Both the position numbers and the translations under genes were made by a program. The notes beneath the pieces were generated by a model, which worked only from the letters and a program-made list of their open reading frames with translations, did no database searches and had not been told where the DNA came from. Shown here in pieces: positions 1 to 12,490 of a DNA stretch of 34,194 nucleotides. Origin of the DNA: an uncultured Nitrososphaerales archaeon (GTDB taxonomy: Archaea; Thermoproteota; Nitrososphaeria; Conexivisphaerales; UBA164); assembly GCA_964342655.1 (NCBI GenBank), contig CAYFFZ010000003.1, positions 1-34,194 of the forward strand, written 5' to 3'. Within the stretch, counting starts at the first letter, position 1; each line of letters starts with the position of its first letter.

Positions 1-235
1 GTATATTCATAGAAAATAAATTTAAAATAATTTATGATGCTTAAATCTCAGCAAGATTTCAAACAATTTGAAAGTTATGAAGATAATGCGTTCAAAAGTT
101 TAATTTTTAAATTAATGCTGTATATTTGTATAATTTTTTTATAATATACGTATGTGTAATCATTTTTTATTATTTTTTAAGAACATTTGTTAATAGAAAT
201 GTGTTTATTTTCTTAAATTTTAAAATAATTTAAAG

Positions 236-709
236 ATGAACAAGATCAACGGTAATTTTAATTCAGGTCCTGAAAATATTGTAGGAACCATCATAAAACC
301 TAGAATAACTTCTGTCTGTGCTTATATTCTGTCTTATCTAGCAATAGTCGGATTTGCATTTTTCATTCTCTTGGCTATCATACCTTATATAGCTATCTTG
401 ATTTACCCTTATGTGTTCATAATTGGTGTGCCATATTTAGCTTTGGGTATTCTGTGTTTTTTTGTTTGTTGTAATGAGAGATATGTACTTACAGAAGATT
501 CTCTATATATATTTAACAGATTAAAAATTAAAAAAGTGAGAATACCAAAAGAAGATATTGCGGCTGTAAATATCAAGTATCCTTCTTTTTGTGACTGCTT
601 TGGAATAGGCGATGTCCTAATAAAGACCAAATCGGGCACGAGCTATAAAATAAGGTATGTTAAAAATCCGGCCTCCGTAGCAGAGCTCATAAAAACATTT
701 AATGCTTAA
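236..709 (+). CDS. Membrane protein with bacterial PH-like (bPH_2/YdbS-like) domain
   Basis: Two N-terminal hydrophobic helices, then Y-x-LT, I-x-x-V and FGIGDVLIKT..I.YV.NP motifs typical of bPH_2 proteins; AT-rich. Confidence 0.6.
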   Translation: MNKINGNFNSGPENIVGTIIKPRITSVCAYILSYLAIVGFAFFILLAIIPYIAILIYPYVFIIGVPYLALGILCFFVCCNERYVLTEDSLYIFNRLKIKKVRIPKEDIAAVNIKYPSFCDCFGIGDVLIKTKSGTSYKIRYVKNPASVAELIKTFNA

Positions 710-892
710 CAATTTTTTTGATCAAAATAAAACTACGCTCAATACACTAGCAAACGACGGCTCAGTAAATAATCGATTTTGCTTTTATAAACATAAAACG
801 AAGCGCAATAACAGATATTTGTGTTAAAATGTTTATACCTGTACACACGTGTTTAATAATTTCTTTTTTTAATTTTATATTGGTGATGAAAA

Positions 893-1303
893 ATGGTTAA
901 AAAGATGTGTGTTTCCGTGTTTTCGGGCAGCGTTGACAGGCTTACCGGATTAGCAATGCTTGTAAGCGGCGCTGCCGCGATGGGTATGAAGGTTGAACTT
1001 TTTCTTCAATTGTGGGGGGCTTATGCATTTAAAAAAGATGTGATAGGCAAGAACATGAACTTTAGCGAGTTCCAAGATAAAGCTCCGGAGGTTGCAAAAA
1101 GGTTGCAGGAGCTAAAGCTTCCGTCTTGGTTTGAGCTAATAAAAGAAGCAAAAAAAGTAGGAGATGTAAAGATATACCTTTGCTCTACAGCAGCGGCAAT
1201 ATGGAACGTTAAGAAAGAAGATCTTGAACTTGTGGATGATATAATTGGGGCAGGAGAATGGGCCGAGAAGAGTGCTGAAGCAGACATCACGCTCTTTGTT
1301 TAG
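893..1303 (+). CDS. dsrE: DsrE/DsrF/DrsH-like (DsrE2-type) sulfur relay protein
   Basis: SG..D..A...SGAAAMG..V.LF...WG and C-terminal VKIYLC with conserved Cys, ending ADITLFV; GGTGA Shine-Dalgarno upstream. Confidence 0.85.
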   Translation: MVKKMCVSVFSGSVDRLTGLAMLVSGAAAMGMKVELFLQLWGAYAFKKDVIGKNMNFSEFQDKAPEVAKRLQELKLPSWFELIKEAKKVGDVKIYLCSTAAAIWNVKKEDLELVDDIIGAGEWAEKSAEADITLFV

Positions 1304-1312
1304 TGATGGAAA

Positions 1313-1576
1313 ATGAGCGAACTTCCAGTTGAAGAGTTAAAAAAACTAAAAGTTAACAAGACTGTAGATGCGAGGGGCACATCGTGTCCCGGACCGCTTC
1401 TGGCGGCTAAAGCCGCAATTTCAGAAGTACCGGTTGGAGGGATACTTGAAGTTCTATCCTCTGATCCAGGTACAAAGAGAGACCTGCCGCTGTGGGCTAA
1501 AAAGATGGGGCATGTTTACCTAGGGACTTTGGAAGAACCCGGCTACTGGAGAATATTTGTAAAGAGGATGAAGTAG
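1313..1576 (+). CDS. tusA: Sulfur carrier protein TusA/SirA family
   Basis: DARGTSCPGP (CPxP) motif, LEVLSSDP..RDLP.W...GH; 87 aa. Confidence 0.93.
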   Translation: MSELPVEELKKLKVNKTVDARGTSCPGPLLAAKAAISEVPVGGILEVLSSDPGTKRDLPLWAKKMGHVYLGTLEEPGYWRIFVKRMK

Positions 1577-1986
1577 TGGAAATGCCAGAACTTCAGGTTC
1601 TGGTGTTTTCCACAAACCTGATTTCTGATGTGGGCATCGATTCAGCAGGGCTTATGCACTTCCCATATCCAGCAAATACCACAATTATAAGGTTACCTTG
1701 CTCATCTATGCTTAGACCCGAATGGGTTCTTCTGGCCATTAAGAGCGGCTTTGACGGCGTGTTCGTAGCAGCAGATGGCAGCGATTGTCCGTATCTAAAG
1801 GATTGTACCGAAAGGACCGCAAGGAGGGTGGATATGGCTCAAAATATCTTAAGAGAAAATGGTATAGAGCCGGAAAGGGTTAAGATGGCCGCTATATGCT
1901 CTGTCTGTGCTGAACCTTTTGCCAACCTTATAAAGGATTTTATCAGCAGCTTAGAAAAAATAGGGCCCGCGAGGAGAGGTAAATGA
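1576..1986 (+). CDS. mvhD: MvhD/FlpD-like iron-sulfur subunit with atypical Cys pattern
   Basis: D.AG...YP....IR.PCS, GFDGVFV, DCPY and GIEPERV motifs; GTG start overlaps the tusA stop. Confidence 0.85.
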   Translation: MEMPELQVLVFSTNLISDVGIDSAGLMHFPYPANTTIIRLPCSSMLRPEWVLLAIKSGFDGVFVAADGSDCPYLKDCTERTARRVDMAQNILRENGIEPERVKMAAICSVCAEPFANLIKDFISSLEKIGPARRGK

Positions 1987-3335
1987 ATTCTGTGTTTTCA
2001 AAAATTATCGAGCAGGCAGAAGAAGAGCCTGAAGAAAAGGAGTTTGACGTTGCGGTAATAGGAGCTGGAATAGCGGGCATGGAAGCTTCATTGGACCTTG
2101 CTGACATGGGTTATTCTGTGCTCCTTGTTGAAAGAGAACCTACTATAGGAGGAAAGATGTTTCTCCTCAGTAAGGTTTTTCCTACGCTTGATTGTGCAAG
2201 CTGCATCTCGACGCCAAAAATGGCCGCTGTTGCTCACCACCCGAAAATATCTCTTTGGACTTATAGCGAAGTATTAAAGATAAAGCAGCTCCATGAAAAA
2301 GGATACGAACTCAGGGTGATGAAAAAACCGAGGTTTGTAGATGAAGCTGCCTGCACTGGATGCTACACATGTGAAGAAGTGTGTCCGATAGATGTGCCAA
2401 AGGAGCTTGACTTTAACTTGAGGGCAAGGAGGGCAGCATACATACCTTTTGACACAGCTGTTCCCAAGGTCGCTGTAATAGACATAGATAACTGCATATT
2501 CTGTGGAAAATGCGAAAGGGAATGCCCGGTCAACGCTATAAACTTTCTCCAGAAGCCAAAAATTTATAGAATAAAAGTAAAATCTATAATACTAGCAACT
2601 GGCTATAACCTTTTCCAGGCAGAAAAGAAGGAGCAGTACGGCTTCGGGAAAATACCGAACGTCATAACATCTATGCAGATGGAGAGGTTGCTTTCTCCGA
2701 CAAGACCTTTTAATCACGTGCTGAGACCTATGGACGGAAAGGAACCGGGAAGCATAGGATATGTTCTCTGTACAGGATCAAGAGATAAAACTGTGGGCAA
2801 CCCGCTCTGCTCTCAGGTTTGTTGCATGTATTCGATGAAACAGGCACAGCTCATACTGGGCGCTCTTCCGCTGGCGGACGTGACGATATACTACATGGAC
2901 ATTAGGGCCTATGGAAAGGGGTTTGAAGAGTTCTACAATCAGGCGCAGGCCATGGGTGTAAAGTTCGTGCATGGAAGGATTGCAAAAGTTGAAAAGGGAG
3001 AAGGTGGGTCTGTCAGGGTTAAATATGAAAACATAGATGAAGGTGGAAAGTTAGAAACCTCAGAGCATGACCTCCTGGTGCTTTCTGTGGGGCTGCTCCC
3101 CAACTGTGAGATAGCAAAGACGTTTGAAGGGGTTTCTTTGTCTCTTGATGAGTTCGGATGGTTGCTGACCCCCGATCCTACAAATCCAGTAAAGACAAAC
3201 CTTGAAGGCGTTTTTGCTGCAGGGTGTTCAACTGGACCAAAAGATATCCCCGATACTGTTGTGCAGGCCGCATCAGCTGCCGCAGAATGCGCGGCCTATC
3301 TTAACAAGGTGAGGGTAGTTGCAGAAGAGCGATAA
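1983..3335 (+). CDS. hdrA: Short HdrA-like (QmoA-sized) FAD/Fe-S subunit
   Basis: GAGIAG FAD motif, KVFPTLDCASC, inserted 2x[4Fe-4S] (CTGCYTCEEVCP, CIFCGKCERECP), CTGSRD..CSQVCC, YMDIRAYGKGFEEFY, GPKDIPDTV. Lacks the N-terminal CHCG domain and the C-terminal ferredoxin. Confidence 0.92.
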   Translation: MNSVFSKIIEQAEEEPEEKEFDVAVIGAGIAGMEASLDLADMGYSVLLVEREPTIGGKMFLLSKVFPTLDCASCISTPKMAAVAHHPKISLWTYSEVLKIKQLHEKGYELRVMKKPRFVDEAACTGCYTCEEVCPIDVPKELDFNLRARRAAYIPFDTAVPKVAVIDIDNCIFCGKCERECPVNAINFLQKPKIYRIKVKSIILATGYNLFQAEKKEQYGFGKIPNVITSMQMERLLSPTRPFNHVLRPMDGKEPGSIGYVLCTGSRDKTVGNPLCSQVCCMYSMKQAQLILGALPLADVTIYYMDIRAYGKGFEEFYNQAQAMGVKFVHGRIAKVEKGEGGSVRVKYENIDEGGKLETSEHDLLVLSVGLLPNCEIAKTFEGVSLSLDEFGWLLTPDPTNPVKTNLEGVFAAGCSTGPKDIPDTVVQAASAAAECAAYLNKVRVVAEER

Positions 3336-5244
3336 GAAGATAGGGGTCTACGTTTGCCACTGCGGAGGGAACATAGCTGATGTGGTTGATGTAAAGAAGG
3401 TAGCAGACGAAGCTGCAAGGATCGATGGCGTTGTAGTATCGCGCGATTATATGTTTATGTGTTCTGAAGCCGGACAGAAGATGATCGAGGAGGACGTTAA
3501 AAATCTTAAGCTTGACGCTGTAGTTGTTGCAGCATGTTCGCCAAAGCTGCACGAATCAACGTTTAGAAATGTGCTGAAAAGAGCTGGAGGTAACCCTTAC
3601 ATGTACTATCATGCTAACATAAGGGAACAGGTTTCATGGGTTCACGAGCATGAAAAAGATAAGGCGACAGAAAAGGCGATAAGGGAGGTAAAGGCCGCCG
3701 TTGCCTACGTTTCAATGGCTGAACCCCTTGAAAAGATAACGGTTAAGGCAGAAAAATCGGTGCTGATAATCGGAGGGGGCATAGCAGGAATAAGGGCTGC
3801 AATAGATATAGCCGATATGGGGATGAACGCCTTCTTGGTCGAAAAGCAACCTTTTCTTGGCGGCATGACTGCTCAATTTAAGCAAGATATTTTTCCCTAC
3901 AACAAGGACTCTTTAACCCTCGTTAGAGACCTGATAGCAGAGCTTAAGAAGAGGCAGAACATAGCTGTTTTTACAAACGCTGAGCTTGAAGAGCTTACTG
4001 GTTATATAGGAAACTTCAGAGCAAAAATAAGGGTCAAACCAAGGTATTTTAAAGAAAGCTGCAATGGTGCTGATCTATTATCGGTTTGCCCCAAGAAAGT
4101 TAAAGACGGCGAAACATCAGAAGAGAGATCGGCCATCATGATGCCTCCTTTTGAAGGAGCTTATCCAGAAATTCCAGCCATAGATGCAAATATTTGCGAT
4201 TTTTGTGGGGAATGTGCCAGAGCTTGTAGCGCTGTAGACCTTTCGCAGAAAGAAGAAATTATTGAAATGAATGTTGGAGCCGTCATAATAGCGACGGGCT
4301 TTGAAACTTATAAACCAAAGGAAGGGGAATATGGTTACGGTAAGGAAGGCGTAATTACGCTTTCGATTCTAGCAAGAGTTTTGGGGAAAAAGGGCTACGT
4401 TGCATTGGATGGCAAAAGGGCCGAAAGCATAGCCATGATATACTGCGTTGGAAGCAGGCAGCAGGATGGAAACCAATACTGCTCAAGATACTGTTGCAAT
4501 GCCGCTTTGGAAGCAGCGATCTCGGCACAGAAATCTGGTACAAGGGTTTATCATATATTCAGGGACGTGCGATCCTATGGAAAGAACGAACTTCTGTATG
4601 AAAGGGCTTCAGCAGGCGGTTCAGTGTTTCTAAAGTACAGTCCAGAGTCTCCTCCTGTGGTTACCCATAAAGATGACAAGCTTACTGTTAAGGTTAAGGA
4701 TCTTCTTACTGAAGGAAAAGAGGTTGAGCTTTCAGTTGATGCGGTTGTGCTCGTGACGGGCATGGTTCCCCGAGAAAACGAAAAGCTCAACAGTATAATA
4801 AAGATCTCTGTAGGAAAAGACGGCTTTTACCAAGAAGTTCATCCAAAACTTAAACCTGTTGAGACAATGATTCCAGGAATTTTTATATGCGGAACAGCTC
4901 AGGGGCCTAAAATGGCAGTTGAGAGCATTTCTTCAGCTTCAGCTGCTGCGGCAAAAGCTGCATCCCTTATACTCAAAGGATACACTGAACTTGAACCTTA
5001 TGTAGCGACAGTTGATCCTTCACTATGCACTTTGAGCGAGGAGTGTATCAAAGAATGTCCCTATAACGCAATATACGTGTATGAATACGAGGGTTCTGGT
5101 AAAAAGGCAAAGGTAAATGAAGCTTTATGCAAGGGTTGTGGAGCTTGTGTGGCTGTATGTCCCAATGGAGCAATTCAGCTAAAAGGGTTGAAAAACGATC
5201 AGATAGAAAGAATGATAGTAAGCGCTGGTGGTGTTAATGGCTAA
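3319..5244 (+). CDS. hdrA: Full-length HdrA-like FAD/Fe-S subunit
   Basis: IGVYVCHCGGNI, FMCS, AACSP, NIREQ, GGGIAG, CVGSR..CSRYCC, C-terminal ferredoxin (CKGCGACVAVCP); TTG start after GGTGA. Confidence 0.92.
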   Translation: MQKSDKKIGVYVCHCGGNIADVVDVKKVADEAARIDGVVVSRDYMFMCSEAGQKMIEEDVKNLKLDAVVVAACSPKLHESTFRNVLKRAGGNPYMYYHANIREQVSWVHEHEKDKATEKAIREVKAAVAYVSMAEPLEKITVKAEKSVLIIGGGIAGIRAAIDIADMGMNAFLVEKQPFLGGMTAQFKQDIFPYNKDSLTLVRDLIAELKKRQNIAVFTNAELEELTGYIGNFRAKIRVKPRYFKESCNGADLLSVCPKKVKDGETSEERSAIMMPPFEGAYPEIPAIDANICDFCGECARACSAVDLSQKEEIIEMNVGAVIIATGFETYKPKEGEYGYGKEGVITLSILARVLGKKGYVALDGKRAESIAMIYCVGSRQQDGNQYCSRYCCNAALEAAISAQKSGTRVYHIFRDVRSYGKNELLYERASAGGSVFLKYSPESPPVVTHKDDKLTVKVKDLLTEGKEVELSVDAVVLVTGMVPRENEKLNSIIKISVGKDGFYQEVHPKLKPVETMIPGIFICGTAQGPKMAVESISSASAAAAKAASLILKGYTELEPYVATVDPSLCTLSEECIKECPYNAIYVYEYEGSGKKAKVNEALCKGCGACVAVCPNGAIQLKGLKNDQIERMIVSAGGVNG

Positions 5245-5509
5245 GTTAACCGCCCAGCAGCTCAGGGACATGATGAACATAAAGGTAAGCGAAAGGCTTG
5301 CTGAAATATCAAGAGAACAGGCTATCACAAGGACAAAAATAATAAATGCTTTATCGAACAAACCAAAAACTATACCCGAGATTTCTGAAGAGACAGGAAT
5401 GCCGGTTGAAAAGGTAACATGGAACGTCATGACGCTTTACAGGTACGGTGTCGTTGAACCTGTGGAAAAAACAGATGACGGTTATTATAGGTATAGGGTG
5501 AGGAAATGA
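5237..5509 (+). CDS. Small winged helix-turn-helix protein
   Basis: KIINAL..PKTIPEISEETGMPVEKV..V..L..YGVV plus a beta-wing. ATG 5237 preferred over 5228; overlaps both neighbours. Confidence 0.75.
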   Translation: MAKLTAQQLRDMMNIKVSERLAEISREQAITRTKIINALSNKPKTIPEISEETGMPVEKVTWNVMTLYRYGVVEPVEKTDDGYYRYRVRK

Positions 5510-6534
5510 TGCTTATAGATGAAATCAAAAAGATGGGGGCATTTGATGTTAATGCTTGCTTTAGCTGTGGGGTCTGCACCGCAACATGCCCGCTTTCAGA
5601 AAACGGTGATGAATTTCCAAGAAAGGTCATAAGGTACGCCATGGTGGGGCTTGAAAATGAGCTTCTGGGCTCTCCGCAGCTCTGGGAATGCTACTACTGT
5701 GGAGAATGCACGAAGAGCTGTCCGAGACAAGCTGATCCTGGAGGGTTCATGATGGCAGCAAGGAAGTATGCGATAACCAAATATTCTTTAGGAAAAATAG
5801 GAAAGGCTTTTTATAACAAAATAACGGCCCCAATCATCTATGCCATACTTTCAGCTTTTTCATTGATCGGAATATTCTTGATTTCTGGCGACCCGACAGC
5901 GAGCATGATATTTACAGTACCTGAGGACTATATACACCTAGCAGGCCTTGTTCTTGGAGCGTTTGTGCTTATAATCGCTCTTACAAACATACTTATAATG
6001 TACAGATACATATCTGGCAAAAGAAGGTTTTCAAAGAGTGTAAGGGTCTGGATAGCGTCGCTGGTCGGCGTGATAGTAAAGGAAGTAATAGCTCAAAAAA
6101 GATTTTCAAAATGTTCTGACCGTGTGAGGAGATATGCTCACATCTCTTTAGTGTGGGGCTTTATACTTCTCATGATAGCAACATCAATAGACTACATAAC
6201 AGGTTCAAGACCTTTGGAAGGAATGCTGTTCGGGTTTACAGGAGGAGCCATGATAATATTTGGCTCAGGTTTCTTTATATATCAGAGGTTGAAGAGGAAA
6301 GAACTTTATTCTCTTCACAGCGATTTTATCGATTGGGCGTTCATCATTTTAATATTTCTCGCAGGGTGCACCGGGTTTGCTCTAGACTTTCTGACAGGAA
6401 TGGCTGCTGTAGCGATGATGTATGCGCACCTGACCATAGTCTTTGATCTTATTGTAACGGCGCCGTTTACAAAGTTTGCGCATGCAATTTACAGAACCCT
6501 TGCCTTATGGTTAAAAGAAGTTCAGATCAAATGA
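5506..6534 (+). CDS. QmoC-like subunit: HdrC-type 2x[4Fe-4S] domain fused to a membrane cytochrome b (NarI/HdrE-like) domain
   Basis: CFSCGVCTATCP and CYYCGECTKSCP, then about 6 TM helices with candidate heme His residues (YIHLAG, YAHISL.WGF, YAHL, PFTKFAHAIYR). Confidence 0.85.
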   Translation: MMLIDEIKKMGAFDVNACFSCGVCTATCPLSENGDEFPRKVIRYAMVGLENELLGSPQLWECYYCGECTKSCPRQADPGGFMMAARKYAITKYSLGKIGKAFYNKITAPIIYAILSAFSLIGIFLISGDPTASMIFTVPEDYIHLAGLVLGAFVLIIALTNILIMYRYISGKRRFSKSVRVWIASLVGVIVKEVIAQKRFSKCSDRVRRYAHISLVWGFILLMIATSIDYITGSRPLEGMLFGFTGGAMIIFGSGFFIYQRLKRKELYSLHSDFIDWAFIILIFLAGCTGFALDFLTGMAAVAMMYAHLTIVFDLIVTAPFTKFAHAIYRTLALWLKEVQIK

Positions 6535-6537
6535 GCT

Positions 6538-7116
6538 TCATAAAGGATAAACTCTTACTTCCATACCGATTATTCCTTTAGACATTTCACATCTGCATAC
6601 CTGAAGCTTTCCATAACTTGTTATCAATCCCTCTATCATTTTGTTGAATACATCTGTAGCTTCTACAGAATTACCCGCACCTACTATCTTCATTACGTAG
6701 CCGTTATCAGACTCAGAAACATCAATCCTTTTTATAGGTAAAACCCTTTCTATCACATCTGAATATTTCTTTATAAGGTCTATAAAATCAGGATAAAGTA
6801 TAGAGAGAGAACGTCCGATAGCCTCCCCGTATTCTTTTGCCTTGTCAAGGAGCTCTCTTTTGTTTGTTTTATAAAGCGTACTGATCATCCATTCAAGAAA
6901 TTCGCCAGGAACTGGCCTGAAGTCTAGGTCTTTCATTACTGGAGAAAGTCTCCATAGATCAAAAACAAGCTCAGGGTTCCCCCCGCTCTTTGTTATCTGA
7001 AGGCACGTCTTTAGCATCTGATTTGCCAGGGCATACATGGTCTTACCTTCCCTTTCGGCCTCGTCTGCAAGCTCCCTTGCCAACACATCATCAACCGCTA
7101 TGTTTGTCCTTCCCAT
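6538..7116 (-). CDS. Putative transcription regulator: N-terminal ribbon-helix-helix plus a C-terminal V4R-like domain
   Basis: RTNIAVDD.LARELADEAEREGKTMYALAN fits the RHH strand-helix-helix pattern; YGEAIG..L and F.K.IEGLI..YG resemble V4R-like folds. Confidence 0.6.
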   Translation of the reverse strand: MGRTNIAVDDVLARELADEAEREGKTMYALANQMLKTCLQITKSGGNPELVFDLWRLSPVMKDLDFRPVPGEFLEWMISTLYKTNKRELLDKAKEYGEAIGRSLSILYPDFIDLIKKYSDVIERVLPIKRIDVSESDNGYVMKIVGAGNSVEATDVFNKMIEGLITSYGKLQVCRCEMSKGIIGMEVRVYPL

Positions 7117-7274: not shown

Positions 7275-7664
7275 GTGGAAGAGTGGATCGCTAAAATAAA
7301 ATATATGATACCCAAACTCATCGAAGAACATAAAGAAATCCATGATCTTTTGCTTAAAAATACAGAAAATTATGCGACTGACAGACAATCCTTCGATGAG
7401 CTTGTAGAAAAACTTCAGAACCATATGTACAGTGAAGAAACTTGGATATTTCCGTTTATGATCGAAAAAGGAATATTCGATGAGAGGTCCGAAGAGATTG
7501 CGTCCCAGCACCAAGAAATAACTTCGATTCTTGTTTATCTTGAAAAGGCTGAAAAAGAAGATTTTTCAAAAAAGTACAGCGAGCTAGTAGGGCTTTTAAT
7601 AGAGCACCACAATGCTGAAGAAGAATACGTTTTTCCGCGTGTCCTAAATTCTATAGAAAAATAG
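7275..7664 (+). CDS. Hemerythrin/HHE cation-binding domain protein
   Basis: EEH..I, HMYSEE..FP, QH.EI, HHNAEEEYVFP. The true start may be ATG at 7305. Confidence 0.85.
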   Translation: MEEWIAKIKYMIPKLIEEHKEIHDLLLKNTENYATDRQSFDELVEKLQNHMYSEETWIFPFMIEKGIFDERSEEIASQHQEITSILVYLEKAEKEDFSKKYSELVGLLIEHHNAEEEYVFPRVLNSIEK

Positions 7665-7780: not shown

Positions 7781-8287
7781 ATGAAGGTAATAAATATAAT
7801 TGGTGAAAGCGAAACCGGCAAAACCAGAACCATAGAGCTTATAGTTAAAAAGCTAACTGAAGAAGGCAAAAACGTAGGCACGGTGAAACATATTCATTCT
7901 GATGATTTTACTCTAGATATGAAAGGAAAAGACACATGGCGGCACTTAAATGCAGGCGCCTCGACTGTTGTAGCAATAACAGATAGTGAAATAATTACTA
8001 TAAAGAGATCAGAAACAAAGAACATCAAGTTTGACGATATTCTTAGAATCTTTCAGGATCAGAAAGATTACATAATTATAGAAGGATTTAAGGGGATGAG
8101 CTTCCCGGCCAATGTCAAAAGAGTGCTGTGTGCTTCAGAAATAGAGCAGATAGAAACGTTCATTAAAAATTTTGGAAAGCCAGATTGTATTGTAACTTAC
8201 AGCATTAAAGATTTAAAGGAAATAAACGGCATACCTGTTTTATTTATGCCTATAGAAGCCGAGAGATTATTTAAAATAATATTATAA
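7781..8287 (+). CDS. mobB: Molybdopterin-guanine dinucleotide biosynthesis protein B
   Basis: GESETGKT P-loop, VKHIH, D..GKDTWRH..AGA, IIIEGFK. Confidence 0.92.
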   Translation: MKVINIIGESETGKTRTIELIVKKLTEEGKNVGTVKHIHSDDFTLDMKGKDTWRHLNAGASTVVAITDSEIITIKRSETKNIKFDDILRIFQDQKDYIIIEGFKGMSFPANVKRVLCASEIEQIETFIKNFGKPDCIVTYSIKDLKEINGIPVLFMPIEAERLFKIIL

Positions 8288-8590: not shown

Positions 8591-9196
8591 ATGTTGGAAC
8601 TTTCGATAGCCATACTAGCTGGCGGAAAGGGTTCAAGGATGGGTTCAGATAAGGCATTTTTGAAAGTTAACGGCTTGCCTTTTTTAAGGGTTATCTACGA
8701 TAGAATTTCAGGACTTTCCGATGACATCATGATAATTATAGGAAACAAGGAAGATAAAGAGTTTAAAAACTCGCTTCCTATTCAGACAAGGATTTTAAAA
8801 GACTCGGTTTATACTATGAGCCCAGTTGGTGGTCTGTTAACAGCTGCGCAAAGTTCGAGACATCAATACTTTGCAGTTTTGGCTGTAGACATGCCTCTTA
8901 TAAACCCTAAAGTTATTGAGATGCTTTATTTTAAGGCTCAAAATCATTCGGCAGCTTTGCCAGTCCTTAAAGACGGAACACTGGAAGTTCTATGCGCGGT
9001 CTATAATAAAGCAGATTTAAAAGAAATAAAACCAAATTCTGTAACATCTGTAAAAGAACTCGTAAGGAAGCTGCCAGATCCTATTTTTATTGATGCGGAG
9101 AAATTTATTGATGTTGATCCTGGCCTTGATAGTTTTTTTAATGTCAATACAAAAGAAGACCTGAAAGTTTTGATGAAAAAGCTGCAATTGGTTTAA
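8591..9196 (+). CDS. mobA: Molybdenum cofactor guanylyltransferase
   Basis: ILAGGKGSRMGSDKA, AVDMP, LCAVY, FFNVNT.ED. Confidence 0.93.
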   Translation: MLELSIAILAGGKGSRMGSDKAFLKVNGLPFLRVIYDRISGLSDDIMIIIGNKEDKEFKNSLPIQTRILKDSVYTMSPVGGLLTAAQSSRHQYFAVLAVDMPLINPKVIEMLYFKAQNHSAALPVLKDGTLEVLCAVYNKADLKEIKPNSVTSVKELVRKLPDPIFIDAEKFIDVDPGLDSFFNVNTKEDLKVLMKKLQLV

Positions 9197-9767: not shown

Positions 9768-10901
9768 TTAAGGCGAGCCCTTCCAAAAAAGCTGCACGGT
9801 TATCCTTTCCCCTTTTCTGTATTCTCTGTTTCTTTCTAAGTAACCAAAAGCATCTGCTTTAGCCAGCTCACTGTAAAGGCCTGTCCCCCACCTTAGAGGA
9901 TAAGCTTTGCTGTCATCGAGCTTAAAGAGGAAAGTCGCATTCATGCTGTGCTTCACATCTACATCTTCTCCAAGTTCAACGTCCTTGTACTTTCTTAGCT
10001 CAACGCCTATCATCTTTGAAACAACGTGAAGCCCTTCAGCGTTGAATACTGTTGCTGCAGAAACTATCCTTCCTGGTAGCGCTATAACAGGCTTCCCGTT
10101 AACTATACCAAGGCCTCCCCTCTTTATGACATTGGTCTGAACACCTTCGTAAAGTAGCTGTCCAACTTCAGAAATAGCCTTCTTGGTATAATCTTTTTTG
10201 CCCACAGAAGAGCCTCCAATTGTGAAGATTAAATCGCAATCCTTAGAAAACTCGTTAAGCGCTTGCTTTATCTTTTCCTTATCGTCCCCTATCAGCGTGT
10301 ATTTCTTTTCAGCAAACGGTAGGAGGTTCATTATCATGGGAGCTATAGCATCCCTTATACCATTATCATGATTATAAGGCACAAGCTCATCGCCTATTGA
10401 TACTAATCCAGCGCATATTTCAAATACCTTTACCGATTTTATGCCTGCTGCTATAAATAAAGGAACATGATAAGGCGAAACAAAGCTTCCTTTTCTAAGA
10501 AGCGCTACTCCAGCTTTTATATCTTCTCCAGCCCTCTCTACATCTTTCCACGGTTTTGGCCCCCTTGCAGGATAAAGTTTGTTGTCAACAACCCTTGCTT
10601 CTTCTATCCTGATTATCGAGTTAGCTCCTACAGGAAGCTTCATGCCAGTCATAACATAAGATGCCTGTCCTTTTTTGAGCTCATTCGAGCTTACTATTTC
10701 ATAGCTTTCTCCTTCATGGATGCTTACAGCGTAACCATCTTGGGCAGCTATATTTTCCTGCGGTATATCGTTCTGGCTCAAAACATCCTCAGCAACTATC
10801 ATGTTGACGGAATTAATAACATCGACATCCTTCGTCTTTAAGGGCTGTAACTTTAAGCCCTCTATTATCTTCTCGACTTCTTCGTACTTGATGAGAGGCA
10901 T
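9768..10901 (-). CDS. moeA: Molybdopterin molybdenum/tungsten transferase
   Basis: AAQDGYAV, VMTG..LP.GA.SIIRIE, GEDIKAG, SIGDEL, GGSSVGKKDYT, ALPG. Confidence 0.92.
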   Translation of the reverse strand: MPLIKYEEVEKIIEGLKLQPLKTKDVDVINSVNMIVAEDVLSQNDIPQENIAAQDGYAVSIHEGESYEIVSSNELKKGQASYVMTGMKLPVGANSIIRIEEARVVDNKLYPARGPKPWKDVERAGEDIKAGVALLRKGSFVSPYHVPLFIAAGIKSVKVFEICAGLVSIGDELVPYNHDNGIRDAIAPMIMNLLPFAEKKYTLIGDDKEKIKQALNEFSKDCDLIFTIGGSSVGKKDYTKKAISEVGQLLYEGVQTNVIKRGGLGIVNGKPVIALPGRIVSAATVFNAEGLHVVSKMIGVELRKYKDVELGEDVDVKHSMNATFLFKLDDSKAYPLRWGTGLYSELAKADAFGYLERNREYRKGERITVQLFWKGSP

Positions 10902-11087: not shown

Positions 11088-11363
11088 GTGATAGGTAGCG
11101 CCACCGATATAATAATAGTGATAATAGTAGCCGTAGTCCTTCTAGCTGGAACTAGCAAGATACCTGAAATATTTAGATCTATGGGAAGGGCGAAAGGCGA
11201 GTTCAAGAAGGGCGAACTGGAAGCAGAGATGGAGCTCAAACAGATGACTCAGGCAAATTCTACTCAATCTAAAGAGCAGAAGGTTGAAGAGCTCCAGAAG
11301 CAGATAGCTGAGCTTCAGAAGCAGTTAGAAGAACTGAAGAAAGAAGAAAAGACAACGAGCTAA
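11088..11363 (+). CDS. tatA: Twin-arginine translocase TatA with a coiled-coil tail
   Basis: Single TM helix, G..KIPEIFRSMGRA.GEFKKG amphipathic helix. Confidence 0.92.
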   Translation: MIGSATDIIIVIIVAVVLLAGTSKIPEIFRSMGRAKGEFKKGELEAEMELKQMTQANSTQSKEQKVEELQKQIAELQKQLEELKKEEKTTS

Positions 11364-11364
11364 A

Positions 11365-11685
11365 ATGCTCGGAAGCCTTACCGATACCCTCATACTTGTT
11401 TTTGTAGCTATTTTGCTGTTAGGCGGAGAAGGGGATCTTTCCGGCACGTTCAGAAAGTTTGGCAAATGGTGGGGCGAGCTAAAGAGATCTGAAGAAGAGT
11501 TCAGAAAGGAGATAACAAAAGAGCTTTCCGACATGGACATGAACTATTCTTTCACAGATAACAGCACAGCAAGCAGAAGCTATACAAACAGCAACAACGA
11601 CATAAGGGTTAAGGAATTGGAAAGACAGGTAAGGGAATTGCAGGAAGAAGTAAAAAGGTTAAAGAAAGAAAATGGAGAGAACTGA
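11365..11685 (+). CDS. Second TatA/TatB-family subunit
   Basis: TM helix, LLGG..DL....RKFGK.WGELK, coiled-coil tail; lies between tatA and tatC. Confidence 0.8.
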   Translation: MLGSLTDTLILVFVAILLLGGEGDLSGTFRKFGKWWGELKRSEEEFRKEITKELSDMDMNYSFTDNSTASRSYTNSNNDIRVKELERQVRELQEEVKRLKKENGEN

Positions 11686-12490
11686 GCTGGAAAACAACGA
11701 AAGACCATTAATCTCTCACATAACTGAGCTTCTAAGAAGGCTAAGGACGATATTGGTTGTTCTGGCCTTGGTATTTTTTGTATCATTTGCTTTCGGCATA
11801 AGGATGGTCGAGTATGCAGGGTACACAATACCTGTGCCCTATCCGAGCATATATTCAAGCATATCAGACTATGTCATAAAGGCATTCATATACAACGAGC
11901 TGCCAAAGGGAATGATACTTATAAACGTGAACACATTCGACCCTCTTTTCGCTTCGTTTTATGTATCTTTCTTTCTTTCTCTTTTTATAGCCGTTCCAAT
12001 AGCCATCTATGAGCTGTGGGCCTTTGTAGCCCCAGGTCTTTACAAGCACGAAAAGAAGCTGATAAAGCTCGCGGTGTTTCCTGCTGGAGCGCTTTTTGCC
12101 GCAGGCGCTTCTTTTGCCTATTTTATAATTGTTCCTTTCATGCTTAGGTTCGTTGTCATATACGCAAAGGTTCTCGGTATAATGCCAACGCTGAGCGTGA
12201 GGGCTTTTATAAACACGGTAATATCTCTTATGATGGCAACCGGCATAGCTTTTGAGTATCCAATGGCGATGGCAGTGCTGACTTTCATGGGTATAGTTTC
12301 AGCAAAGAGCTGGAAGAGCGGATGGAGGTGGGGAATAATAGGCGCGTTCATAATAGCCTGGATAATTTCGCCAGGAACCACAGGAGGGATAATAGAGACT
12401 ACAATAGGAATAATACTTTCTGGGCTTTACTTTGTTGGTGTTGCTGCAGCCTACATTATTGAAAGAAGATTAAAGAGAAACAAAAAGTGA
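11672..12490 (+). CDS. tatC: Twin-arginine translocase TatC
   Basis: PLISHITEL.RRL, YELWAFVAPGLYKHEK, LF.AG..FAY, GIAFEYP; about 6 TM helices. Confidence 0.95.
   Translation: MERTELENNERPLISHITELLRRLRTILVVLALVFFVSFAFGIRMVEYAGYTIPVPYPSIYSSISDYVIKAFIYNELPKGMILINVNTFDPLFASFYVSFFLSLFIAVPIAIYELWAFVAPGLYKHEKKLIKLAVFPAGALFAAGASFAYFIIVPFMLRFVVIYAKVLGIMPTLSVRAFINTVISLMMATGIAFEYPMAMAVLTFMGIVSAKSWKSGWRWGIIGAFIIAWIISPGTTGGIIETTIGIILSGLYFVGVAAAYIIERRLKRNKK

Follow-up and report, generated by a model that had tools for sequence, protein, structure and literature searches.

The window analysed here is a stretch of 34,194 nt from an uncultured Nitrososphaerales archaeon of the Conexivisphaerales (assembly GCA_964342655.1, contig CAYFFZ010000003.1), and its subject is a seven-gene operon that encodes the sulfur carriers DsrE2B and TusA together with an MvhD-like iron-sulfur protein, a short and a long HdrA protein, a small winged-helix protein and a QmoC-like membrane protein (Table 1). 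The listing of open reading frames (ORFs) confirmed seven plus-strand genes that make up one co-directional operon at 893–6534, and, with the Pfam and NCBIfam domains assigned, the gene order of a first-pass annotation and its sole gap, 9 nt between dsrE and tusA, proved exact; the following junctions overlap by 1, 4, 17, 17 and 4 nt, and GGTGA/GGAGG-like motifs precede the internal start codons. Scans for the CCG domain, AprB, PF00374 and PF02662 also bore out that the window holds no hdrB, no aprBA (the genes of adenosine 5′-phosphosulfate (APS) reductase) and no hydrogenase, and that MvhD is a separate gene.

Table 1. Features of the seven-gene operon and its upstream region (positions in the window).
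Feature	Position	Strand	Description
upstream intergenic region	710..892	+	183 bp, AT-rich, 27% GC; presumed promoter region
dsrE2B	893..1303	+	DsrE2B-type sulfur-carrier protein, 136 aa, soluble
tusA	1313..1576	+	TusA sulfur-carrier protein, 87 aa
mvhD	1576..1986	+	MvhD/FlpD-family iron-sulfur protein, 136 aa, separate gene
short hdrA	1983..3335	+	QmoA-like, 450 aa; flavin adenine dinucleotide (FAD) domain with inserted 2x[4Fe-4S] ferredoxin domain
long hdrA	3319..5244	+	641 aa; full methanogen-type HdrA architecture, without fused MvhD domain
winged-helix gene	5228..5509	+	small winged-helix protein, 93 aa, probable structural subunit
qmoC-like	5506..6534	+	342 aa; HdrC-like 2x[4Fe-4S] domain fused to NarI/HdrE-like cytochrome b domain

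DsrE2B and TusA carry the features of a sulfur relay

The DsrE protein matched PF13686 (4e-11) and PF02635 (2e-8) in Pfam, and its best match among Protein Data Bank (PDB) entries was 2QS7 (E 1.6e-27), with the C-S-T motif aligned; 2QS7 is the protein named DsrE2B in the texts of Liu 2014 (PMC4175335) and Tanabe 2024 (PMC11094781). A hydrophobicity scan found no transmembrane segment in it. Conservation of cysteines, here and below, was counted over 24 loci hand-picked from a working set of 86, and the single conserved cysteine of DsrE2B, Cys97, is present in all 15 aligned homologues. TusA matched PF01206 (2.5e-22) and carries the motif C25-P-G-P, in which Cys25 was found in 24/24 sequences and the whole motif was invariant in the 22 aligned ones; 29 columns are invariant in the TusA alignment of archaea and Bacteroidales. 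Both features of a DsrE2B–TusA relay, a DsrE2B fold and sequence with the active-site cysteine and a TusA Cys-Pro-x-Pro motif, were thus found, and by sequence the pair is a candidate relay of this type. A complex prediction of TusA with the short HdrA, MvhD and the winged-helix protein gave 0.05 against a mark of 0.32; it was run without controls and is not used as evidence either way.

The redox core combines a short and a long HdrA, a separate MvhD and a QmoC-like subunit

The MvhD/FlpD-family protein was recognized by PF02662 (1e-29) and by PDB entry 5odc_D (4e-19), and five of its cysteines are conserved (42, 71, 77, 108 and 111). Read off the 5odc_D alignment, only two of its cysteines align with cysteines of M. 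thermolithotrophicus MvhD; the N-terminal Cys-Cys-x2-Cys of that protein is missing, and Cys77 and Cys108-x2-Cys111 are conserved instead. Cluster ligation may therefore differ from that of known MvhD proteins.

The short HdrA matched the HdrA2 model NF040770 with 485 bits over model positions 130–565, lacking the N- and C-terminal HdrA domains, and matched the PDB HdrA structures 8rvv/5odc at E about 1e-117. Its conserved cysteine motifs comprise two of ferredoxin type, one C-x12-C-x3-CC and the pair C71-x2-C74. This pair was considered as a novel redox-active disulfide, a candidate that was rejected: by manual count it aligns with Cys194/Cys197 of methanogen HdrA (5ODC) and is therefore a feature of the HdrA family, which we take to be probably a cluster ligand. 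The long HdrA covered positions 1–639 of the 777-position NF040770 model (578 bits) without an MvhD domain, and its residues 5–635 aligned end to end with HdrA of 8rvu/5odc (E about 1e-145). It lacks a pair of the C71/C74 type, and its N-terminal cysteine set is conserved in 20 of 24 loci. If, in methanogen HdrA, the N-terminal cluster of one protomer is completed by Cys197 of the other, this cysteine pattern would fit a heterodimer of the short and the long HdrA. In-frame stops within some hdrA matches were considered as selenocysteine codons and rejected as such, being the stop codons of the upstream gene where tblastn had over-extended the match.

The QmoC-like protein matched the NCBIfam equivalog model for qmoC, NF038018, over its full length (positions 5–358 of 360) at 191 bits, below the cut-off of 300. 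Its N-terminal part matches HdrC structures, about 5–6 hydrophobic segments follow from residue 108 on, and eight cysteines together with His212, His308 and His326 are present in 24/24 sequences.

A winged-helix protein is probably a structural subunit

The 93-aa protein has no cysteine and matched the ArsR/TrmB-type winged helix-turn-helix family PF01022 weakly (6.5e-5); its AlphaFold2 model (predicted local distance difference test 89.5) is a generic ArsR/SmtB-like winged helix, with a template modelling score of about 0.56 in Foldseek. Its homologue was found in all 82 readable loci of the cluster, as a separate gene in 52 and joined to the C-terminal end of the long HdrA in 30, and all 30 fused tails match the hidden Markov model of the separate proteins (E 1e-17 to 1e-23). 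The fusion therefore argues for a subunit bound to the long HdrA and not for a free regulator, and the protein is probably structural. The possibility that it is a DsrD homologue was rejected, since DsrD appeared neither in the Pfam scan nor among the Foldseek matches listed.

The fusion is linked to a second rearrangement. At 23 Paludibacter-type Bacteroidales loci, the short HdrA holds an in-frame Fer4_20 plus Pyr_redox_2 module (GltD/NfnB-like, NAD(P)H-binding), which enlarges it to 926–972 aa (L020:4840-7698 and 22 other loci), and the long HdrA was fused to the winged helix in 23/23 loci with the insertion and 0/48 without it. This insertion indicates that the HdrA core accepts an additional soluble redox partner. 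An HdrL-type HdrA with an NAD(P)H-binding domain is described for Desulfobacterium autotrophicum in the text of PMC12142623; the 23 insertion-bearing proteins resemble it in this respect, whereas the short HdrA of the window has no insertion.

The subunits branch apart from canonical QmoABC

The logic of the operon is that of canonical QmoABC (Desulfovibrio, Chlorobaculum, Archaeoglobus), with a short and a long HdrA-like protein, an MvhD module and a subunit in which HdrC is fused to cytochrome b, but its composition differs. In the four canonical Bacteroidota loci examined the genes run aprB-aprA-qmoA-qmoB-qmoC, and the MvhD domain lies inside QmoB (749–750 aa), C-terminally; in the window MvhD is encoded separately and ahead of the hdrA genes, hdrA and qmoC are separated by an additional winged-helix gene, and the operon is not adjacent to aprBA.

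The difference was also seen in the NF038018 scores, for which 301 Bacteroidota and 301 Thermoproteota genomes were scanned. The scores of Bacteroidota were bimodal, with 13 genomes at 496–521 bits and eight with full-length matches at 142–223 bits, and one more canonical-looking qmoC (G055) is truncated by a contig end. None of the 301 Thermoproteota genomes reached the cut-off, and the 191 bits of the window protein likewise fall far from the canonical range. Quick maximum-likelihood trees with SH-aLRT support and midpoint rooting were built from 43 QmoC sequences, after removal of 8 duplicate loci, and, as a quick tree rooted and supported in the same way, from 40 HdrA-family proteins, after four incomplete ORFs (L138, L139 and two parts of L151) had been dropped; the canonical sequences in both come from Bacteroidota only, and methanogens, Desulfobacterota and Archaeoglobus are not represented. 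The 13 canonical QmoC sequences fell into a single clade, at support 100 and with a branch length of 2.5, and the window protein lies outside it. The HdrA tree was split with support 99 between canonical QmoA and QmoB, joined by an apr-adjacent HdrA of genome G585, and the short and long HdrAs of the module with their variants; the short/long pair therefore arose separately from QmoA/QmoB. The short HdrA falls in a clade of its own, with support 99. Pairwise comparison gave 32–37% identity (236–261 bits) between the short HdrA and canonical QmoA, and 24–27% identity (90–108 bits, blastp) between the long HdrA and canonical QmoB; the long HdrA matched methanogen HdrA with 487 bits in phmmer, which allows only a rough comparison with the QmoB bits as the two programs differ.

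The seven-gene module occurs in archaea and in Bacteroidales

A scan with QmoC returned three loci at about 80% identity, in Nitrososphaeria, Thaumarchaeota and Conexivisphaerales metagenome-assembled genomes (MAGs), and 77 Bacteroidales loci at about 30%, among them Paludibacter, Proteiniphilum and the isolates Seramator thermalis and Anaerorudis cellulosivorans. The related loci L017 and L018 each have the whole set of seven genes. The order tusA-mvhD-hdrA-hdrA-qmoC was the same in all 54 Bacteroidales loci with at least 6.2 kb of upstream sequence; the other 23 are cut short. A tblastn search for DsrE was negative at all 77 Bacteroidales loci, a false negative owing to divergence that is contradicted by Pfam and by clustering: a DrsE_2 gene lies upstream of tusA in 36 of the 37 loci that are 15 kb or longer, with Pfam E values of 2e-42 in Seramator, where it is directly upstream of tusA, and 3e-43 in a second representative. 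A divergent Crp/FNR-type regulator accompanies 33 of these 37 loci, among which no conserved downstream gene was found. Among the 301 sampled Thermoproteota, four genomes carry the seven-gene set (G472, G465, G531 and G573), all of them AprB-positive, and it was also found in two further Conexivisphaerales genomes, G621 and the AprB-negative G628. The expectation that dsrE-tusA would be conserved next to homologous clusters therefore held across two domains, in Thermoproteota, Conexivisphaerales and Bacteroidales. In G628 the seven-gene module (C18, L151) is preceded by an extra qmoC, and a paralogous five-gene set, mvhD-hdrA-hdrA-wHTH-qmoC, lies elsewhere (C5, L156), with tusA/dsrE not detected upstream of it.

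Conservation was uneven along the operon. Identity of Thermoproteota proteins to those of the window was 79–88% for TusA, 61–79% for DsrE, 66–71% for the short HdrA, 66–68% for MvhD, 56–57% for the long HdrA, 41–44% for the winged-helix protein and 34–36% for QmoC, and the medians in Bacteroidales were 55% (TusA), 52% (short HdrA), 49% (MvhD), 42% (long HdrA), 36% (winged helix) and 30.5% (QmoC), with DsrE giving no tblastn value there, TusA being the most conserved of the seven proteins in both comparisons. In the HdrA tree, the short and long HdrAs of the window join Thermoproteales copies before those of their own family or order (support 99 and 97), whereas in the QmoC tree the window protein groups with qmoC-first variants (G475, G411). 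This conflict suggests lateral transfer of the module with exchange of its membrane subunit; the divergence of QmoC may reflect such an exchange or much faster evolution.

The locus matches the published type II Qmo

The "type II Qmo" described in the text of Neukirchen et al. 2023 (PMC10504309) was defined on proteins of V. moutnovskia and A. degensii; it has qmoA/B-like genes nearer to hdrA than to bacterial qmoAB and a separate type of QmoC, is present in organisms with and without Apr/Dsr, and its function was left open there. The locus shares these traits, in that its long HdrA is nearer, by the rough comparison above, to typical HdrA than to canonical QmoB and in that the complex occurs in genomes with and without Apr/Dsr, and by its sequence it appears to be a new Conexivisphaerales member of this uncharacterised kind. 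QmoB and QmoC were also already listed in dsr-bearing Thaumarchaeota by DiSCo (PMC8477390, in the text). The dsrE2B-tusA pair goes unmentioned in the main text of PMC10504309, as do the separate MvhD gene, the winged-helix subunit and the spread in Bacteroidales. A literature search, whose scope did not include the original type II description or supplements, returned no paper that connects TusA/DsrE with the type II complex or with Qmo-like complexes. Nor did the literature searched describe the constant association with dsrE2B-tusA, the winged-helix subunit or its fusion, the NAD(P)H insertion, or how widely the set is spread in Bacteroidales.

Two other known systems share parts of the locus. 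The pairing of dsrE2B-tusA with an adjacent Hdr-type complex is well established (Liu 2014, PMC4175335), and the sHdr systems with dsrE3A-dsrE2B-tusA of Sulfolobales and others, as described in the texts of PMC4175335 and PMC11094781, have the DsrE2B–TusA pair directly beside such a complex, as here. In contrast to them, the locus has no hdrC1B1A-hyp-hdrC2B2 arrangement, no hdrB/hdrC pairs and no hyp gene, no CCG domain on its contig and no DsrE3A; its core is two HdrAs and a membrane-anchored QmoC, and reductive-type genes are nearby. With methanogen HdrABC-MvhAGD it shares the end-to-end HdrA alignment (5ODC/8RVU), an MvhD homologue and an HdrC-like domain, but it lacks HdrB in the operon, has a fusion of HdrC to cytochrome b, a second, short HdrA and a different cysteine pattern in MvhD, and a search of the 73%-complete genome for a [NiFe] hydrogenase was negative. 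The first-pass annotation had held that the locus fits none of these systems and is the best candidate for a new one. It is indeed not canonical Qmo, sHdr or HdrABC, but novelty was overstated in view of its match to type II Qmo (PMC10504309, in the text).

The source genome encodes a dissimilatory sulfur pathway

The source MAG (G000) comprises 1.11 Mb in 121 contigs at 73% completeness, the window being its contig C3. On contig C34 lie aprA, truncated at the end of the contig, aprB, a gene for a membrane protein of 251 aa, cobA, a DsrN-like amidase, dsrC, dsrB and dsrA, with dsrM and dsrK in the opposite orientation; AprB was found on C34 only, and sat lies on contig C50. The complex had been described as an orphan, which this genome contradicts, holding sat, aprBA with an AprM-like gene, dsrABC, dsrN and dsrMK. 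Of the two signs of an ordinary Qmo named beforehand, branching inside the canonical Qmo clades was not observed, and aprBA in the genome was. The genome-wide search proposed together with these signs returned aprBA, sat and dsrAB; HdrB was absent from the operon, and the [NiFe] hydrogenase large subunit (PF00374) was not found anywhere in the 73%-complete genome. The CCG-domain proteins of the genome are DsrK, a second DsrMK-like pair (C18) and an HdrD-like protein of 662 aa (C10).

The 251-aa protein (C34:977-1732, minus strand) is encoded directly upstream of aprB and resembles the cytochrome b half of QmoC (NF038018 positions 161–355, 69 bits; about 5 hydrophobic segments). AprM is the name given in PMC10504309 and PMC8477390, in the texts of both, to a membrane partner of AprBA in some sulfur oxidisers; the protein is termed AprM-like here by position and topology only. 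Such a gene lies directly upstream of aprB, outside the seven-gene operon, in six of the seven genomes that hold both aprB and the operon (G000, G003, G004, G472, G465 and G531; G573 differs).

Further copies of sulfur-carrier genes and of the cluster were observed. A third dsrE-tusA pair at C115:18-511 has about 40% amino acid identity to that of the window, and another dsrE-family gene lies beside dsrK on C34 (10295-10639, minus strand). A second whole copy of the cluster, with the 192-aa gene downstream of it, is split between two short contigs (C65:3-3614 and C89:3-2620), which match window positions 822–4433 and 4462–7080 at 81–83% nucleotide and 78–94% amino acid identity. Many short contigs of the MAG twin long ones at 72–93%, and this favours a co-binned related population, the simpler reading, over a real paralogue. 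In G606, a genome of the same genus, two QmoC matches were found.

A proposed menaquinone-linked complex that may act on TusA- and DsrE2B-bound sulfur

We give roughly even odds, a probability of about 0.5, to the reading that the operon encodes a menaquinone-linked two-flavin complex working with sulfur bound to TusA and DsrE2B, and that it is not the obligatory electron donor of AprBA. The QmoC subunit, with its HdrC-like domain and a cytochrome b of di-haem type, anchors the complex in the membrane and presumably contacts menaquinone; the short and full-length HdrAs probably form a heterodimeric core with two FADs and multiple [4Fe-4S] clusters, and the separate MvhD-like protein and the winged-helix subunit would complete the complex. 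Electrons would pass between the menaquinone pool and the cytoplasm via QmoC and the HdrA flavins, possibly with ferredoxin taking part in a flavin-based bifurcation or confurcation, as happens in HdrA enzymes, and NAD(P)H may be a further partner in the Bacteroidales subgroup. On the cytoplasmic side, the partner would be cysteine-bound sulfur on TusA/DsrE2B (persulfide or thiosulfonate) and not APS reductase; DsrE2B and TusA have one conserved cysteine each and are translationally coupled upstream of the genes of the complex. In the source archaeon, the operon beside its sat-aprMBA-dsr pathway may form a branch of dissimilatory sulfur metabolism for sulfane-sulfur handling or as an electron sink. 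The same genes occur in bacteria unable to reduce sulfate, so the role of the complex is probably not that of textbook Qmo.

A first alternative, which we consider unlikely, is that the complex is the ordinary Qmo of the archaeon and delivers menaquinol-derived, possibly confurcated electrons to APS reductase in sulfate reduction, as proposed for the type II complex of Vulcanisaeta; DsrE2B–TusA would then be neighbours serving the Dsr/DsrC pathway or general sulfur trafficking. It draws on the sat, aprBA, dsrABC and dsrMK genes of the genome, on type II Qmo in cultured sulfate reducers (PMC10504309, in the text) and on the contact of Desulfovibrio QmoA with AprAB, for which a missing third partner was postulated in the text of PMC3333476. 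Against this alternative, AprB in Bacteroidota was present, on the same contig, in 13/13 genomes with canonical QmoC and in 0/8 with a full-length gene below the cut-off (among the 301 sampled), and it was missing from three of three Bacteroidales carriers checked separately. DsrA above the cut-off and DsrC were each found in 0/5 Bacteroidales module carriers, and G628, which has the seven genes at 95% completeness, has no AprB. Against a dedicated role for the operon, AprB in sampled Thermoproteota (25/301) mostly comes without it: 19 of the 25 have no QmoC-like match at all, and in the AprB-positive G585 the match is restricted to the C-terminal membrane part of QmoC; conversely, AprB is missing in six of the 11 Thermoproteota with a full-length QmoC-like gene. 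The adjacent AprM-like gene in six of seven genomes offers aprBA a membrane partner of its own, and at none of the loci seen did the operon stand beside aprBA, whereas at all four canonical loci examined qmoABC comes directly after aprBA.

At the G585 locus (L136, G585:C1:355000-368000), aprB/aprA have as neighbours an HdrC-like gene, a gene for an HdrA of 826 aa, an MvhD match and a membrane gene like the C-terminal part of QmoC. The 826-aa HdrA groups with canonical QmoA/QmoB in the tree, and the locus looks like a split Qmo-like set dedicated to apr; it illustrates the form of such a set in this phylum and counts against the ordinary-Qmo alternative.

Several observations weigh against the sulfur-carrier reading, and those on AprB also speak for the ordinary-Qmo alternative. 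Among the archaeal seven-gene carriers seen, AprB is present in 9/10, against the 25/301 of sampled Thermoproteota; in genus g1, it was found in 4/4 carriers and 1/5 non-carriers. In G003, aprM-like, aprB, aprA, sat, a DUF6955 gene and two TauE genes lie about 9 kb upstream on the same strand; between them and the seven-gene cluster are helicase genes on the opposite strand and an Lrp/AsnC regulator. The text of PMC10504309 treats the V. moutnovskia type II Qmo as part of sulfate reduction, and in vitro the M. cuprina DsrE2B failed to react with any of six sulfur compounds (PMC4175335, in the text). Within the operon proteins, no catalytic site for S–S chemistry was identified, and no HdrB/CCG protein was found in the operon or on the window contig, the CCG matches being on C10, C18 and C34 only. 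Sets without adjacent tusA/dsrE also exist, at G628:C5 and in the qmoC-first arrangements of G475, G411, G499, G471, G387, G579, G622, G230 and G038. Taken both ways, the Apr evidence places the archaeal operon in a sulfur-metabolising neighbourhood but not within the apr operon.

The missing catalytic site and the sets without tusA/dsrE also speak for a second alternative, a general energy-converting ferredoxin and/or NAD(P)H:menaquinone oxidoreductase like bifurcating EtfABCX/Fix, which we hold to be quite improbable. In such an enzyme, the HdrA flavins would couple a mid-potential donor to quinone and ferredoxin, with QmoC taking the place of HdrB as the high-potential exit, and TusA/DsrE2B would be accessory, as regulators, sulfane-sulfur sensors or factors of Fe-S maturation or repair and not as substrates. 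The long HdrA retains the full architecture of bifurcating methanogen HdrA, and at 23 Bacteroidales loci the short HdrA contains the NAD(P)H-binding GltD/NfnB-like module; both are consistent with it, as are the pleiotropic cofactor roles of TusA in E. coli (cited in PMC8477390). However, the tight translational coupling of TusA and its top conservation suit a stoichiometric partner more than they do a maturation factor, the active-site cysteine of DsrE2B is invariant, and the archaeal distribution tracks sulfur-metabolising genomes, all of which count against this alternative.

Neighbouring features of the window

The contig begins 892 bp upstream of dsrE2, and contigs break in very AT-rich DNA a few hundred bases 5′ of this gene in two genomes (G000, window 1–892; G004, L018 1–366); the same region is unbroken in G003, where it holds a bPH-domain gene and the Lrp/AsnC regulator. 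The gene after qmoC is convergent (6538–7116, minus strand). Further downstream lie a hemerythrin-domain gene (7275–7664), the molybdenum-cofactor genes MobB (7781–8287), MobA (8591–9196) and MoeA (9768–10901, minus strand), and TatA/TatC (11088–11363 and 11672–12490). The catalytic subunit of a molybdopterin oxidoreductase (PF00384, PF04879; 32298–34193) runs off the 3′ end of the window and, given the Tat and cofactor genes nearby, could matter for sulfur or other anaerobic respiration.

Implications for dissimilatory sulfur metabolism

How electrons travel to and from the cytoplasmic steps of dissimilatory sulfur metabolism is a standing question. Together with DsrE2B, TusA and its own winged-helix subunit, the type II set forms a constant unit of seven genes, and its abundance in Bacteroidales without Apr, Dsr and DsrC, cultured isolates included, offers tractable organisms for a concrete, testable hypothesis, namely that TusA-bound sulfur is the partner of the complex. 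Should the complex instead serve AprBA, the locus would be an ordinary archaeal Qmo variant. A bolder and more tentative proposal, to which we give rather less credence than to the sulfur-carrier reading itself, is that the operon is a horizontally mobile respiratory module common to two domains, in which a menaquinone-anchored HdrA complex with two flavins and without HdrB would directly oxidise or reduce the sulfane sulfur of TusA/DsrE2B, bifurcating or confurcating with ferredoxin or NAD(P)H. If so, it would represent an unrecognised energy-converting route for cytoplasmic sulfur, common to thermophilic sulfate- and sulfur-reducing archaea and fermentative Bacteroidales, and "type II Qmo" would not be a partner of APS reductase at all.

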